64,000 nucleotides of DNA from the sequence record MK373778.1; one strand, 5' to 3'. Numbering within the stretch: the first letter of the stretch is position 1; the number at the start of each line of letters is the position of its first letter. Position numbers and translations under genes: made by a program. Below, one piece after another: positions 2,991 through 10,445 of this stretch. Under the pieces are notes generated by a model. It made no database searches and had not been told where the DNA came from. It saw nothing but the letters and a program-made list of their open reading frames with translations. Source of the stretch: Escherichia phage vB_EcoM_WFbE185.

Positions 2991-3676
2991 TACCAGCCTT
3001 CCATAGGGAATTCCAGATAAACTTGAGCATTGACACGAATTTCATTGGTAATCTTTTTAACTCGGTCTGTATTACGAGATACACGTCCGAACCAACGCCA
3101 TCCGTTACTAATTGCACGAGAACCAGTGTGCCATGTTTGCCAATCAAACTGAAGAAGAGTACGATCTGGAGCTTCCCATTTCTCTAGTTCACCTTTTTCA
3201 ATTTTTTCGAGGACTTCTTTGTGCCACTGGCGATAGATAAGTTCGCCATCAGGAATCTGACTGAACTCTGCAGTTCCTGTTGCAAAATGAGTAGGACACA
3301 CGTCAGCGTTAACAAGACCAAGAATGTGTTCAGACAAATAGCGAGGATTGTCATAATCAGGTTGTCCTGCAGTAATAAAGTGTTGACCTACCGGAATATC
3401 CGGGCGTGGTACATCGTCATGGTGATAACCTGGGATAGCAGGGTACCAACCAGGCATCAGCATGTGGACTCGTGAATCAAATACAACCTGATCGGTGTTC
3501 CAATCATCTGGCAAGTTCATGATGAAGCTGCGAGTAATAGGACCGCCGTTATTATAAGCAAATTCTAAACTACAGTTGAAGAACATAGGCTCGTTTTTAA
3601 TCTGCTCGTTTTTAATCGCATGAGCAAAACCACCTACTGCACGAGCTTGACTATTAAACACTTTAGAACTATTCAT
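2990..3676 (-). CDS. hypothetical protein
   Basis: ORF track 228 aa; ATG preceded by GAGGA. Confidence 0.7.
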   Translation of the reverse strand: MNSSKVFNSQARAVGGFAHAIKNEQIKNEPMFFNCSLEFAYNNGGPITRSFIMNLPDDWNTDQVVFDSRVHMLMPGWYPAIPGYHHDDVPRPDIPVGQHFITAGQPDYDNPRYLSEHILGLVNADVCPTHFATGTAEFSQIPDGELIYRQWHKEVLEKIEKGELEKWEAPDRTLLQFDWQTWHTGSRAISNGWRWFGRVSRNTDRVKKITNEIRVNAQVYLEFPMEGW

Positions 3677-4053: not shown

Positions 4054-5010
4054 TTATTTGAAAGGTTTTACCATATGGAAATTTTGTTTGAAACGTTTTA
4101 CGTAATCGTCATGTCCTAAGCTTTGGTACATACTTACAACTTTGCTGTAGTTTTCCCAGGCGTATTCACGGAACCAACCGGAGGTGATGCTTGTGCAGAC
4201 TTTTTCTAATGCCATCATGAAACTGGCTTCAGGGTTAATTTTAAAGTCATTAGGAATCTGAGAACGTTCTAATGCTAGTACACATGATTCTTCATATACA
4301 CCGGCCAATTTGACCATTTCTGGTAACGATTCGAACTTCTCGCGTGAGGTCATGACTTCAGAACCGTCTTTCATATAAAATGTATACGCTGGGCGGTCTG
4401 TTAGCGCAATGGCTTCGTGAATAGTGTCATGGTCATATGTATAGATGTCATCTTTAAAGAACGCACTTTTAGAAGTGTCAAGAACTGGGTGAGCATAGTT
4501 CAAGGTTTCTTTCTGGCGTTTCAGCATAATTTCAGTAAGTTCATCGTTCAGTGTAACACCTTTACCACGAAGATACTGAATATGGTTCATAGTCTTTAAA
4601 AAGAATGGATTATTTTTCTTGAAACGATGAGACATCTTAATTGCAAGGCACATCTCAGGAGTCGCCCAGTAAAACCCGTTCAAACGGTCTTTAGACAAAT
4701 TTTTCTTGGCGTATTTTAAAAGGTCATAAGAAGACGTGAAATCTTCAGGAGTGAGTTCACCTACTAATTCACGGACATTAGTGATTGCCGGAACAATATA
4801 TGCTTCAAAATGAGTTTCGCGTCCATTATGGAAGCATTTGAAAACTTGGACATCAGGGTTATCTTGGTGAACATATACACCCATCATTTGATTTTTGAAT
4901 GCATTCCAAGAACATTGGTCCGCAATAAAGTCCCAATCACTATTTTTGATAGCGCTAGAATCAATAAGACCGTGATAGTGAAGTGCACGAGAACCAATAA
5001 CTAACATCAT
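4054..5010 (-). CDS. hypothetical protein, possible nucleotidyltransferase fold
   Basis: ORF track 318 aa; N-terminal IGSRALHYHGL...SDWDFIAD resembles GS...DxD of Pol-beta-type NTases (weak). Confidence 0.7.
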   Translation of the reverse strand: MMLVIGSRALHYHGLIDSSAIKNSDWDFIADQCSWNAFKNQMMGVYVHQDNPDVQVFKCFHNGRETHFEAYIVPAITNVRELVGELTPEDFTSSYDLLKYAKKNLSKDRLNGFYWATPEMCLAIKMSHRFKKNNPFFLKTMNHIQYLRGKGVTLNDELTEIMLKRQKETLNYAHPVLDTSKSAFFKDDIYTYDHDTIHEAIALTDRPAYTFYMKDGSEVMTSREKFESLPEMVKLAGVYEESCVLALERSQIPNDFKINPEASFMMALEKVCTSITSGWFREYAWENYSKVVSMYQSLGHDDYVKRFKQNFHMVKPFK

Positions 5011-5340: not shown

Positions 5341-5538
5341 TTAGCAAGAATAACTAGATGATACCCAGCCTTGAACAGTAATACTATTGTGGGATAATGA
5401 GATCGCGTCCTGGAGATTCAGACCTGCGTTATCTTCAATCCATAATGTAACTTCTTCGCGTTCTTCTGTTGCAATCTGGAACAGGTTTTCCAGAGCAGCT
5501 ACTGCGGTACGCACAGCACAATCTAATTCACGAGACAT
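5341..5538 (-). CDS. hypothetical protein, paralog family member (C-terminal GWVSSSYSC)
   Basis: ORF track 65 aa. Confidence 0.6.
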   Translation of the reverse strand: MSRELDCAVRTAVAALENLFQIATEEREEVTLWIEDNAGLNLQDAISLSHNSITVQGWVSSSYSC

Positions 5539-5547
5539 ATTGTTTCC

Positions 5548-5820
5548 TTAACAAGTGTGAGAAGATGCGACCCAACCACCAGTTTCGAGGCTCAAGTTGT
5601 AGTCGTATTGGTAAACGTCAGCCCATTCAGCATAGCCGTTTTTTGTACAACGTTCAAGATCAGCTTTAAGATGTCCGGGTGAATGATAGGTTCCACCCAT
5701 ACCATAAGCTGGGTACAAGTTGAATGTTGTGTTTTGTTTATCGGCAATTTCTTTGGCAGCCTCAATAGCTGCATAGATTTTTGCTACAGCTTCAGCCAGT
5801 TCGGTTTGTTCTTTAGACAT
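5548..5820 (-). CDS. hypothetical protein, paralog family member (C-terminal GWVASSHTC)
   Basis: ORF track 90 aa. Confidence 0.65.
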   Translation of the reverse strand: MSKEQTELAEAVAKIYAAIEAAKEIADKQNTTFNLYPAYGMGGTYHSPGHLKADLERCTKNGYAEWADVYQYDYNLSLETGGWVASSHTC

Positions 5821-5829
5821 AATGATTCC

Positions 5830-6135
5830 TTAGCACAACGCAGAAGACGAAACCCAAGCACCTTCAGTAATAACGTAACCATTACCTTCACGCTTAACAT
5901 CGCCACCATTATTTTCAATTTCATCTTTCATCCACTGGGATACGATTTCACCCTTAGGATAATAAGTACGACCGCTACCATAATCACCTACAGAAAATGA
6001 TACGGCATATTGGTCTGCGATCTTTGTTGCTTCTTCTTCGATACGTTCAGCTTGATTCAGAAGTTTATAAATTGCATCTGAAGCGGATTTGGCATCATTA
6101 AACTCTGGTACTTTAATTTCAATAATCTTACTCAT
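5830..6135 (-). CDS. hypothetical protein, paralog family member (C-terminal AWVSSSALC)
   Basis: ORF track 101 aa. Confidence 0.65.
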   Translation of the reverse strand: MSKIIEIKVPEFNDAKSASDAIYKLLNQAERIEEEATKIADQYAVSFSVGDYGSGRTYYPKGEIVSQWMKDEIENNGGDVKREGNGYVITEGAWVSSSALC

Positions 6136-6205: not shown

Positions 6206-6490
6206 TCATTTGAGAAGCGTAAACCCTTTTATTTTCTTGTTATGGTTTATAAAATCGTAGTAAAAATAGACTACAGTACAAAATGATGCGATTGATGCAA
6301 AGGCTTGAGTATATCGTAAGTCCTGCCACTGGTCTGTGAATCCACCAGTGTTCCCTATAAATCCTAACACAACGCCGTCAATAAGAAATCCAACTAATCC
6401 AAAGGCAAATCCCATGCCAATACTCATAATAAAAATTAGAATGTTCTCACCAAGAGAAGGCCATACGGTTAAGAGTTGAGGCTTTTGCAT
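6206..6490 (-). CDS. hypothetical small membrane protein
   Basis: ORF track 94 aa; hydrophobic core ILIFIMSIGMGFAFGLVGFLIDGVVLGFIG; start overlaps upstream ORF. Confidence 0.6.
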   Translation of the reverse strand: MQKPQLLTVWPSLGENILIFIMSIGMGFAFGLVGFLIDGVVLGFIGNTGGFTDQWQDLRYTQAFASIASFCTVVYFYYDFINHNKKIKGFTLLK

Positions 6491-6864
6491 CTTATTTCCT
6501 TAACGAATTCCATAGCTTCTTCATATTCATACTTTTTAACAGCTTCATCATACTGAGCTTGGGCTTTTGCGCACTGAACTTTCCATTCTCTTAATCGGGC
6601 TCTGTGATGACGGCCTTGGTGCCAATATCCTGCCCAATTAATAGGCATTAATAAAAATGGTACAATAAGTGGGGCGACGAACATTAATGAAAATGCTGCA
6701 TCAGACGATATAACTTTACTAGAATCTAAAACAGCTCCTATAATCATAAAGATTAAAAATGCTAAAGCTAAAATAGGGCCAAATAGTACTTCGTTTGGGA
6801 TTAATTTACGTTTGTATTCGTATGCCCAGGGCTTAATTGGCATGTACAGGGTTGGCTTTGACAT
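6469..6864 (-). CDS. hypothetical membrane protein, C-terminal EFVKEIRC
   Basis: ORF track 6469..6894 begins with TTG; first ATG at 6864 (MSKPTLY); two hydrophobic helices. Confidence 0.6.
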   Translation of the reverse strand: MSKPTLYMPIKPWAYEYKRKLIPNEVLFGPILALAFLIFMIIGAVLDSSKVISSDAAFSLMFVAPLIVPFLLMPINWAGYWHQGRHHRARLREWKVQCAKAQAQYDEAVKKYEYEEAMEFVKEIRCKSLNS

Positions 6865-7435
6865 ATTCTCTACATTCCATAATAAATTGCTCAAGGATTA
6901 AATTGTTAGTGAAATTAGGACTAACAACCATAGTTTCATAAAGCGCATCAATAGCACTTAAAGCATCAACTCTTTTAAGCAAAGGCTTGCCTTCATACAT
7001 AGTTTCAGAATCAACGATTAACGTAAAGTAATATTTTTTATTATCGACTAGAACTTCTGTGTCGATATAAAACATATTAGACCTCAGAAGCTTATCTCTA
7101 AAACCATAATAATCTTCTGAACGTTCGCTGATATATTCCCATTCAGTGTTTAAACAACAAACAGACCACGTAGGAGAAACGAAATCAGTGAATCTAATAT
7201 CATGGTCTGCAACTAGTTTAGCAATAGCTCCGATATCATGAATCATAATACCTGGGGCTAATAAAGATTTTCTGCTATGGCTAGCCGTTTTCTCAGTGGT
7301 CTCATAAGAAGCTGACCAGTACCATTTACGTCCGGTTGCAACATATCGTAATGAATCAACTAAAGACGTAGGTGGATTTACCTTATCTCGGAACTCTTCG
7401 AACATTGAGTCAATATCATTATTTTGGTTTCGCAT
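6833..7435 (-). CDS. hypothetical protein, C-terminal FIMECR
   Basis: ORF track 6833..7456 begins with TTG; ATG at 7435 preceded by AAAGGAG. Confidence 0.7.
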   Translation of the reverse strand: MRNQNNDIDSMFEEFRDKVNPPTSLVDSLRYVATGRKWYWSASYETTEKTASHSRKSLLAPGIMIHDIGAIAKLVADHDIRFTDFVSPTWSVCCLNTEWEYISERSEDYYGFRDKLLRSNMFYIDTEVLVDNKKYYFTLIVDSETMYEGKPLLKRVDALSAIDALYETMVVSPNFTNNLILEQFIMECREYVKANPVHAN

Positions 7436-7458
7436 GTTAACTCCTTTATTATCCAAAA

Positions 7459-7476
7459 GGAGGACCGGAGTCCTCC
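7459..7476 (-). terminator. intrinsic terminator hairpin after ORF 7485..8078
   Basis: ggaggaccggagtcctcc stem-loop followed by T-run on minus strand. Confidence 0.5.
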
Positions 7477-7484
7477 GTATTATT

Positions 7485-8078
7485 TTATTTCAAAGAGTTA
7501 ATATATTCTTGTACATCAGCAGAAGTGGTTTCGACACCGGCTAGAGTGCCATTAAACGTTTCAACACGAGTCAGAGTGTCTTCGATATCAACCTTAGTCA
7601 GTGCAGCGATTTCAATTACATCATCGGCTGTAGAGATACCAAGGGCATTGGCTGCTCGAGTTTCACGAATGTATTCGAGTTTGATTGCCAGGTTCTGACG
7701 AGCATCGTCAAGTTCAACCACCTTACGAGCAATTTCAATTCGCATAGCGGCATACCCGTCAGCTTTTGTATTAAGTTGTTCGGCAGTTCGACGATACAGA
7801 AGACCAAGCTTAGCATGCATGGTAACATCTTGTCCTTCGGCCAAGAGCTTACGAATTTCACGTTCCTTAGAAGCGGCTTGCTTATTCTTTTCAATAACAA
7901 GTTCGCGAATACGTTTTTCTTCATTAATAGATTTAACAGAGGCCGTTTTTAGTTCTTTGATTTGGGTAATCAACTTATCTGCAGCTGCGTTATACTGTTC
8001 TTCGACAGTCAGATTTTTAGCCATAGCAGTACCCAGTTTAGTGCGGATGAATTCAACAAGTTTCTTCAGTGTGTTCAT
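7485..8078 (-). CDS. hypothetical coiled-coil protein
   Basis: ORF track 7485..8120; ATG at 8078 (MNTLKKL); charged heptad-like sequence throughout. Confidence 0.7.
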
Positions 8079-8147
8079 ATTATTACCTTTCAATTGGTGG
8101 TTTATTATCCATGAGAGCATTATACTCTGCTCTCAAGAGTTTGTAAA

Positions 8148-8375
8148 TTATTTTTTAATCAAATTGACATAAAACTCTGCGTCTTCGGGGTGCATGCCTT
8201 CGCAGTATTCTTCAACCATGAACTTCTTAACGGCTTCATAAGGACCACTCAGATTAAGCTCAGTTGTCCAGAACTTGGAATCTTGTACTGAATCGATACG
8301 AACTTCAGGGTGACGGTTGCGAATAACTTCTTCTGTGTATTCATAATCAACGACATCAATACTAACTTTAGCCAT
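8148..8375 (-). CDS. hypothetical protein
   Basis: ORF track 75 aa; early promoter cassette and GAGGA upstream. Confidence 0.65.
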   Translation of the reverse strand: MAKVSIDVVDYEYTEEVIRNRHPEVRIDSVQDSKFWTTELNLSGPYEAVKKFMVEEYCEGMHPEDAEFYVNLIKK

Positions 8376-10288: not shown

Positions 10289-10365
<77 letters not shown>

Positions 10366-10371
10366 AATATA

Positions 10372-10445
10372 TGACCCAGACCAGATTCGAACTGGTAACC
10401 TTTCCCTTATGAGGGGACTGCTGCTAACCATTGAGCTACAGGGCC
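10372..10445 (-). tRNA. tRNA with anticodon CAU (Met or Ile2 type)
   Basis: T-arm ACCAG-TTCGAAT-CTGGT, acceptor GGCCCTG/CTGGGTC with one mismatch, anticodon loop CTCATAA; D and anticodon stems imperfect. Confidence 0.5.

Follow-up and report, generated by a model that had tools for sequence, protein, structure and literature searches.

Gene e.6 of T4-like phages encodes a probable divergent member of the PspA/IM30/Vipp1 family with a possible role in inner-membrane protection

The stretch of DNA analyzed here, the window, comprises 64,000 nucleotides (nt) of Escherichia phage vB_EcoM_WFbE185 (MK373778.1), and all coordinates are positions in that whole stretch. The minus-strand open reading frame (ORF) at 7485-8078 has 197 codons followed by TAA. 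It was annotated as the coding sequence of a T4 e.6 (msp3) ortholog in PHROG 1203, a putative divergent PspA/IM30-like family. An initial reading of the letters without database searches, the sequence-only reading, had given the same coordinates and the length of 197 amino acids (aa); both were correct, and 8078 is the right start. Mechanical ORF calling reached up to an ATG at 8120, which would give a protein of 211 aa. This longer version was discarded because its ATG falls within a promoter's -10 box and the orthologs begin at 8078, with MNTLKK as the start in the T4 annotation and in almost all orthologs. The promoter (8119-8147, minus strand) is of the sigma70 type, like T4 early promoters, and consists of TTTACA at 8147-8142, a 17-nt spacer, and TATAAT at 8124-8119. 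It matched the consensus at 11 of 12 positions in a pattern scan. The Shine-Dalgarno-like GAAAGG (8086-8091, minus strand), read directly from the sequence, lies 7 nt upstream of ATG 8078.

The 3 kb surrounding the gene showed 96-98% DNA identity to Mosigvirus-type T4-like coliphages (97.7% to Mosigvirus-type phages), and the protein shared 88% identity with the product of T4 gene e.6, recorded as msp3 in L13089. The L13089 record, annotated in the 1990s, has the same layout, in which -35/-10 signals at the equivalent site upstream of msp3/e.6 are followed by the coding sequence and then by a putative stem-loop. The window protein matched phrog_1203 ('unknown function') with E=8.6e-86, residues 1-197 against profile positions 1-199. 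T4 e.6 (E=8.1e-88) and Ackermannviridae members (1e-52 to 3.5e-65) also matched this profile end to end. By these sequence matches, the phage is Mosigvirus-like and its gene is orthologous to T4 e.6; the protein falls into PHROG 1203, which includes Straboviridae and Ackermannviridae proteins. In T4, the RNA of e.6 (T4p129, P39224) was classed as early, and the protein was seen with middle-phase kinetics (PMC9697503 supplements).

Homologs were found in 1,101 phage records by tblastn. Relative to records with a gp23 homolog, which may take in a few non-T4-like phages, the gene was present in 541 of 636 for Escherichia and 80 of 89 for Shigella. Synechococcus, Vibrio, and Acinetobacter phages are major gp23 groups and lie outside the ten groups in which e.6 is most frequent. 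The orthologs carry several labels in public records (e.g., MT630408, OK335775, MN478483, and UniRef clusters), namely 'hypothetical protein', 'phage protein', 'host specificity protein', and 'tail completion protein'. The last two look like propagated mis-annotation, because sequence, fold, and expression give them no support. An Rz-like spanin (phrog_1267, E=0.043; TIGR03495, E=0.27; about 50-70 residues) was also considered and dropped, since the protein lacks a membrane anchor and is encoded by an early gene.

The 197-aa protein, which ends in QEYINSLK, contains 32% D/E/K/R and no Pro, Cys, or Trp. Its hydrophobic residues recur with a period of 3.5 residues, which was equalled by only 0.15% of shuffles. 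The sequence-only reading had described almost entirely charged heptad-like repeats with no hydrophobic helix. The periodicity is significant, but 'almost entirely charged' was an overstatement. No transmembrane helix was found in the protein, in agreement with the second part of that description; the top 19-residue window had a Kyte-Doolittle value of 1.06. About 85% of the protein is predicted to be helical. AlphaFold2 was run twice, with A1, a narrow profile of 26 close e.6 orthologs, and with A2, a family alignment of 42 sequences; the mean predicted local distance difference test (pLDDT) values were 76.2 and 78.2, respectively. Both models contained helices at residues 2-22, 25-80, 86-145, 166-174, and 186-196.

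The N-terminal basic helix, residues 2-22 (8013-8075, minus strand), was modeled with a low pLDDT of 43-58 and aligns to alpha0 of Vipp1/PspA. It carries a net charge of +4, and close orthologs all retain K5, F10, and K14. The central part is a predicted antiparallel helical hairpin (7644-8006, minus strand), in which residues 25-80 and 86-145 are equivalent to alpha1 and alpha2+3 and residues 81-85 form the tip. This part was modeled with high confidence (pLDDT 83-97). The 146-180 linker was modeled with low confidence (linker pLDDT 46-56), and two short C-terminal helices are predicted within residues 166-196 (7491-7583, minus strand; 166-174 and 186-196; pLDDT 51-89). Tentatively, these may be the equivalents of alpha4 and alpha5. 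The region 166-196 carries the conserved motifs V-E-T-F and Y-x-x-S-L-K; in close orthologs T174, F175, and T185 are invariant, and Y192, S195, L196, and K197 nearly so. In the models, the helix order alpha0, alpha1, alpha2+3, alpha4, alpha5 is PspA/Vipp1-like, and the alpha0 and alpha1 boundaries are essentially equal to those of PspA/Vipp1.

A resemblance to PspA had been guessed in the sequence-only reading, and the profile searches supported it at the level of the family. When A1 was compared with 1.84 billion representative proteins, 45 matches were obtained, all of phage type and mostly about 200 aa long, the rest being fragments. No cellular PspA was among these 45 matches. On this sequence evidence, the e.6 family is small and phage-restricted. 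The 45-protein set contains divergent members with 17-27% identity, and A1 matched two of them, P0057 (E=4.2e-20) and P0063 (E=6.6e-17), over the full length. P0057, P0063, and other divergent members all fell in phrog_1203. The nearest database relatives of P0063 are from Ackermannviridae, e.g., gp064 of Klebsiella phage May (genus Taipeivirus). Against the Pfam model PspA_IM30 (PF04012), which has a gathering cut-off of 33.9 bits, P0063 scored 39.0 bits and P0057 35.1 bits, with residues 6-146 aligned to profile positions 2-143. P0061 remained below the threshold (E=1e-4).

The family alignment gave a consistent result. In an hmmsearch of A2 against the Protein Data Bank (PDB), Vipp1/PspA chains occupied ranks 1-7 (best E=3.7e-5, positions 1-146 to 1-147). 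The alignment with Vipp1 had no gap through alpha0, alpha1, and the turn, and only a single one-residue gap at the start of alpha2. For comparison at the profile level, alignment A3 was built from ten enterobacterial PspA sequences and Vipp1 residues 1-150. It is shallow (effective number of sequences, Neff, 1.6), and Vipp1 was added, because a word-indexed search with E. coli PspA gave only relatives with at least 86% identity. Alignment of A2 with A3 by hhalign gave a probability of 91.6%, E=8.3e-7, and a score of 47.6 over 170 columns, with e.6 positions 1-176 opposite PspA positions 1-171. The Straboviridae-type subset, defined as 29 sequences sharing 27% or more identity with the window protein, aligned with PspA end to end (score 32.0, E=4e-4; null 15.1±3.0). 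The Straboviridae-type and Ackermannviridae-type subsets aligned with each other with a probability of 100% (E=1.8e-47), and by sequence these two sub-groups are certainly homologous.

Structural comparison pointed to the same family. With the first model, the six best Foldseek matches in the PDB were all Vipp1 (7o3w_A, E=6.4e-3, probability 1.00, 20% identity); archaeal ESCRT-III CdvB2 ranked 7th, and E. coli PspA 4whe was also present. With the second model, Vipp1 filled all ten top places (best E=1.2e-4, probability 1.0), and CdvB2 and the PspA rod 7abk came next. The helical hairpin was superposed on Vipp1 6zvs_A with a template modeling score (TM) of 0.70 (target-normalised) and a root-mean-square deviation (rmsd) of 2.9-3.0 Å over about 122 columns. 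In BFVD, a library of viral structures, members of the e.6 family came first, followed by 'Snf7 family protein [Megaviridae]' and 'PspA/IM30 family protein [Acinetobacter phage ME3]'.

The e.6 proteins belong to the same size class as PspA/IM30 (Vipp1)/LiaH (PF04012), about 200-220 aa. Their predicted helices have the same lengths as in PspA/Vipp1, co-linear from residue 1: alpha0 spans about 2-22 and alpha1 about 25-80, and a turn then leads to a long alpha2/3. The predicted hairpin helices of about 56 and 60 residues equal those of Vipp1 in length and register. Identity to Vipp1 in structural alignments was 13-20%. Sequence motifs correspond in part. The E-D-P that follows alpha0 in PspA has an acidic E-[DE] as its counterpart in the e.6 family. 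At the start of alpha2, PspA/Vipp1 has L-A-R-x-A-L-x-x-K-K and the e.6 family has A-K-L-x-L-L-x-R-R, giving the shared consensus A-K/R-x-x-L-x-x-R/K-R/K. In the putative alpha4, hhalign set the conserved, F-containing R-V-E-T-F of e.6 opposite A-R-F-E-S-F-E of PspA.

Several observations weigh against kinship with PspA or against a PspA-like role. The window protein alone had no PF04012 hit in Pfam (hmmscan, E<=10), no match to PDB sequences (phmmer), and no PspA match in NCBIfam; these searches yielded nothing beyond weak coiled-coil noise. The narrow profile A1 proved too shallow: it placed Synechocystis Vipp1 (sll0617) only 4th-5th in the PDB (E=1.3, 5-138 to 5-140), and its hhalign probability against the PspA alignment was 7%. 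The PspA link is therefore transitive and applies at the family level. The hydrophobic moment of alpha0 (0.35, compared with 0.40 for E. coli PspA and 0.50 for Vipp1) would suit an amphipathic helix but was not significantly above that of shuffles (p ~0.17). The C-terminal third, with the possible alpha4/alpha5 helices, falls about 25 residues short of its PspA counterpart and was modeled with low confidence. Full-length Foldseek TM values were only 0.45-0.53 with a large rmsd, and the first model had no match with E<=0.001. Low full-length TM values are expected, because a monomer model was compared with open polymer conformers. No PspB-, PspC-, or PspF-like partner was found beside the gene; the neighbors e.5, e.4, and e.3 and those in phage May had no Pfam PspB/PspC match (E<=10). 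Neighboring genes are not conserved between the phage lineages. Finally, helical coiled coils easily produce false matches in profile and fold searches, and shuffled and reversed controls were run for this reason. In hhalign, column-shuffled A3 scored 12.8±2.5 (maximum 20.7), A3 shuffled in 7-column heptad blocks scored 15.3±2.3 (maximum 22.3), and reversed A3 scored 18.0. Taken together, the data indicate that the e.6 family is very probably homologous to PspA/Vipp1.

The controls bear directly on the view that e.6 is a generic coiled coil, with a likeness to PspA that is convergent and driven by composition and with an unrelated role, for example as a scaffold or adaptor in an early phage process. 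Single-sequence searches without a PspA match, many weak matches to HAUS6_N, SMC, BAR, and spectrin, and Foldseek lists that include BAR domains, designed bundles, and axonemal coiled coils (E 0.1-1) are all consistent with such a protein. However, the match to PspA is co-linear from residue 1 and almost gapless, with helix boundaries kept, and two family members exceed the curated cut-off of Pfam PspA_IM30. Shuffles that keep composition or heptads cut the hhalign score from 47.6 to about 13-15 (maximum 22), and Vipp1/PspA filled all top ranks in two independent searches. We consider convergence quite improbable. A virion or host-range function, as in 'host specificity protein' or 'tail completion protein', is hardly credible. 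It is suggested by GenBank/UniRef labels only, whereas no match to tail, fiber, or completion families was found in Pfam, PHROGs, or NCBIfam, and PHROG 1203 is itself annotated as 'unknown function'. An early sigma70-type promoter, an early T4 RNA, a location among small non-structural genes in the early e-to-tRNA region, and a PspA-like predicted fold also argue against it.

Another possibility accepts the homology and changes the purpose. A PspA-derived decoy or regulator could bind PspF, PspB/C, or host PspA, or could co-polymerize with PspA and poison it. The alpha0-hairpin region of E. coli PspA carries the membrane-binding and PspF-binding determinants, and the C-terminal region mediates lattice contacts in Vipp1/PspA polymers. 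The part that e.6 shares with PspA is the alpha0-hairpin region (1-146), and the C-terminal part, which makes the lattice contacts, is shortened and divergent in e.6; both features would suit a decoy. Early shut-off of host transcription (PMC9697503), in contrast, leaves little gain from silencing or inducing the sigma54 regulon. The family also spans Aeromonas and Ackermannviridae phages with very divergent sequences, which is better explained by a self-contained function than by tight co-evolution with a single host partner. We therefore regard a decoy as unlikely.

We favor the interpretation, and hold it to be reasonably probable, that the e.6 family is a divergent branch of PspA/IM30/Vipp1 that serves as the phage's own protector of the inner membrane and the proton-motive force during infection. 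A membrane-protective function of e.6, taken by itself and argued by analogy, is plausible, if slightly short of probable. PspA/Vipp1 proteins are described, in PMC9409062 and in abstracts of other papers, as binding stressed membranes, polymerizing through the hairpin, and preventing proton leakage. T4-like phages silence the genes of their host early in infection (PMC9697503). Because the phage halts host transcription within minutes, an infected cell would be unable to induce the psp operon; we infer that the phage therefore supplies a PspA-like protein of its own. Such a protein would bind the cytoplasmic face of the inner membrane via alpha0, like PspA/Vipp1, and would polymerize via the hairpin into carpets, rings, or rods. 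The polymers would seal the stressed membrane and keep the proton-motive force, so that the inner membrane would stay tight and the proton-motive force high until programmed lysis. The benefit may be that premature depolarization, which would trigger the holin or abort the infection, is avoided in the latent period and lysis inhibition. Abortive-infection effectors that permeabilize the membrane are one source of depolarization that e.6 could blunt.

A broader proposal can be made by extension. T4-like phages, T4 included, might deploy an early ESCRT-III-type repair polymer that maintains an energized inner membrane, thereby controls holin timing and lysis inhibition, and acts as a general counter-defense against depolarizing abortive-infection effectors. 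We regard this proposal as doubtful, with the odds clearly against it. The counter-defense targets of such a polymer would be RexAB-like systems, the transmembrane effectors of cyclic oligonucleotide-based antiphage signaling systems (CBASS) and retrons, and gasdermins. If true, it would represent a new class of anti-defense, in which damage is repaired instead of a sensor or effector being inhibited.

T4 is the reference lytic phage, and its e.6 still goes under 'conserved hypothetical protein' or the wrong label 'host specificity protein'. Placement beside PspA/Vipp1/ESCRT-III provides a hypothesis, testable at low cost, for a gene that most enterobacterial T4-like phages carry. If the hypothesis is true, the phage swaps the membrane-stress response of its host, which it has switched off, for an early copy of its own. 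A bacterial ESCRT-III-like protein would then tie together lysis timing, maintenance of the proton-motive force, and resistance to membrane-targeting abortive infection, and e.6 would offer a minimal, genetically tractable member of the superfamily with only 197 aa. If the protective role is false, e.6 would still be a cellular membrane-remodeling protein that two families of large myoviruses have taken up and reshaped.

The relation of e.6 to known systems is uneven. The E. coli PspA gene belongs to a stress operon controlled by sigma54/PspF, whereas e.6 is a lytic-phage gene with an early promoter of the sigma70 type. Eukaryotic and archaeal ESCRT-III proteins (Snf7/CHMP and CdvB; PF03357) have a similar hairpin-based helical fold, and CdvB2 filament chains were among the fold matches. 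These matches were far weaker than those to Vipp1 (CdvB2, E 0.036-0.19 and TM 0.27-0.46; giant-virus Snf7 in BFVD, E=0.03). Pfam searches gave no sequence-level signal for Snf7 (PF03357), and no Vps4-type ATPase was noticed among the neighboring genes examined. The PspA/IM30/Vipp1 family is the ESCRT-III superfamily's bacterial arm, and the relation of e.6 to ESCRT-III holds only via this PspA branch. The sequence-only reading had named PspA and ESCRT-III together, and its PspA guess found support at the family level.

Phage-borne PspA-like proteins have been noted before. On the basis of HHblits against pdb70, Gp_125 of Kuttervirus SeF3a (phrog_1203) was described as homologous to PspA, and an anti-abortive-infection role was proposed for it (Gendre et al. 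2022, Int J Mol Sci 23:8917, PMC9409062). The Kuttervirus gene was patchy, occurring in 4 of 15 genomes, and T4 e.6 was unmentioned in that work (PMC9409062). Gp_125 and other Ackermannviridae members share the PHROG with the window protein, match the PHROG profile end to end, and are about 24% identical to the window protein. The patchy occurrence in Kuttervirus differs from that of e.6, which is nearly ubiquitous in Escherichia and Shigella T4-like phages. We found no literature linking T4 e.6 or the Straboviridae branch to PspA, and the names in phage records and protein clusters likewise gave no such link. Thus, the PspA link for PHROG 1203 was already proposed in 2022 (PMC9409062), and its extension to T4 e.6 and the Straboviridae appears to be new here. 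The 'PspA/IM30 family protein' of Acinetobacter phage vB_AbaM_ME3 is also phage-borne and has a similar predicted fold (BFVD rank 9, probability 0.97). It differs from e.6 in belonging to a distinct lineage: it has 229 aa, is recognized directly by standard models, and showed 17% identity to e.6 (E=0.075). It was probably acquired independently.

Downstream of the gene, a pattern scan identified a GC-rich hairpin at 7455-7476 (minus strand), GGAGGAC-UCCG-GUCCUCC followed by UUUU, which resembles an intrinsic terminator or an mRNA 3'-end element. The stem-loop at 7476-7459 starts 8 nt past the stop codon and is followed by UUUUGG. Its folding energy was -14.4 kcal/mol (z=-2.5 compared with dinucleotide shuffles). 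Independent annotations call it a terminator in MK373782 and a stem-loop in L13089, the T4 record. A GC-rich hairpin directly follows the stop codon of the e.6-family gene in four lineages: the Mosigvirus window, T4 (L001, 1581-1596), Aeromonas phage 65 (L004, about 3590-3625), and Klebsiella phage May (L003, about 4612-4640). The stem sequences are unrelated among the four lineages; T4 has GGGGC-UUCG-GCCCC with a UUCG tetraloop and without a U-tract. That its position is kept in the four lineages despite the different stems speaks for a function of the hairpin.

The sequence-only reading had assigned the gene its own terminator. The hairpin is real, but strong termination is doubtful, as the U-tract has only 4 U in the window and is missing in T4. 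Some 12 nt beyond the hairpin, the Shine-Dalgarno site of the next gene, e.5, starts, and the pattern scan showed no convincing promoter in between. Because the U-tract is short or absent, the Shine-Dalgarno site is close, and no convincing promoter lies between, the hairpin may be a leaky terminator or an element stabilizing the mRNA 3' end, not a strong stop.

The genes directly downstream of the hairpin lie at 6206-7435 (minus strand) and are e.5-like (6833-7435), e.4-like (6469-6864), and e.3-like (6206-6490). They overlap by 32 and 22 nt, which suggests that e.5, e.4, and e.3 are translationally coupled. Because no promoter was predicted between e.6 and e.5, expression of e.5-e.3 probably needs read-through of the e.6 hairpin. 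Predicted transmembrane segments are two in e.4, which also has a C-terminal charged helix, at least one in e.3, and none in e.5. All three belong to PHROGs of unknown function and had no Pfam match. In Klebsiella phage May and Aeromonas phage 65, the genes that come after the PspA-like one showed no BLAST similarity to e.5, e.4, or e.3. Genes for small membrane proteins occur a few genes downstream in all three phages; this was not accepted as a sign of a PspBC-like module.

In Klebsiella phage May (Ackermannviridae), the region 4001-5381 of L003 contains the PspA_IM30-like gp064 among genes for DNA replication (helicase, DNA ligase, and helicase loader). Two small predicted membrane proteins follow gp064 directly, namely gp063 (185 aa, with an N-terminal transmembrane segment) and gp062 (60 aa, with one such segment). 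Neither showed sequence similarity to T4-type e.5, e.4, or e.3.

Just upstream of the e.6 promoter, the gene at 8148-8375 (minus strand) encodes a 75-aa FRD3-family protein (Pfam PF05798, E=1e-38). The protein also matched phrog_1764, but only over the last 74 of 391 profile positions; phrog_1764 therefore appears to mix long and short forms. Three tandem paralogous ORFs lie at 5341-5538, 5548-5820, and 5830-6135 (minus strand) and encode proteins of 65, 90, and 101 aa that are 31-34% identical. They start with MS[KR] and end with G-x-W-V-[SA]-S-S-x-x-C, with a C-terminal cysteine; the largest belongs to phrog_899, of unknown function. The C-terminal motif suggests, from sequence, a shared modification or interaction site. 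The window also contains genes for tRNA-Arg(tct) at 10289-10365 and tRNA-Met(cat) at 10372-10445, both on the minus strand. Compared with T4, which has eight tRNA genes, the tRNA cluster of the window is reduced.

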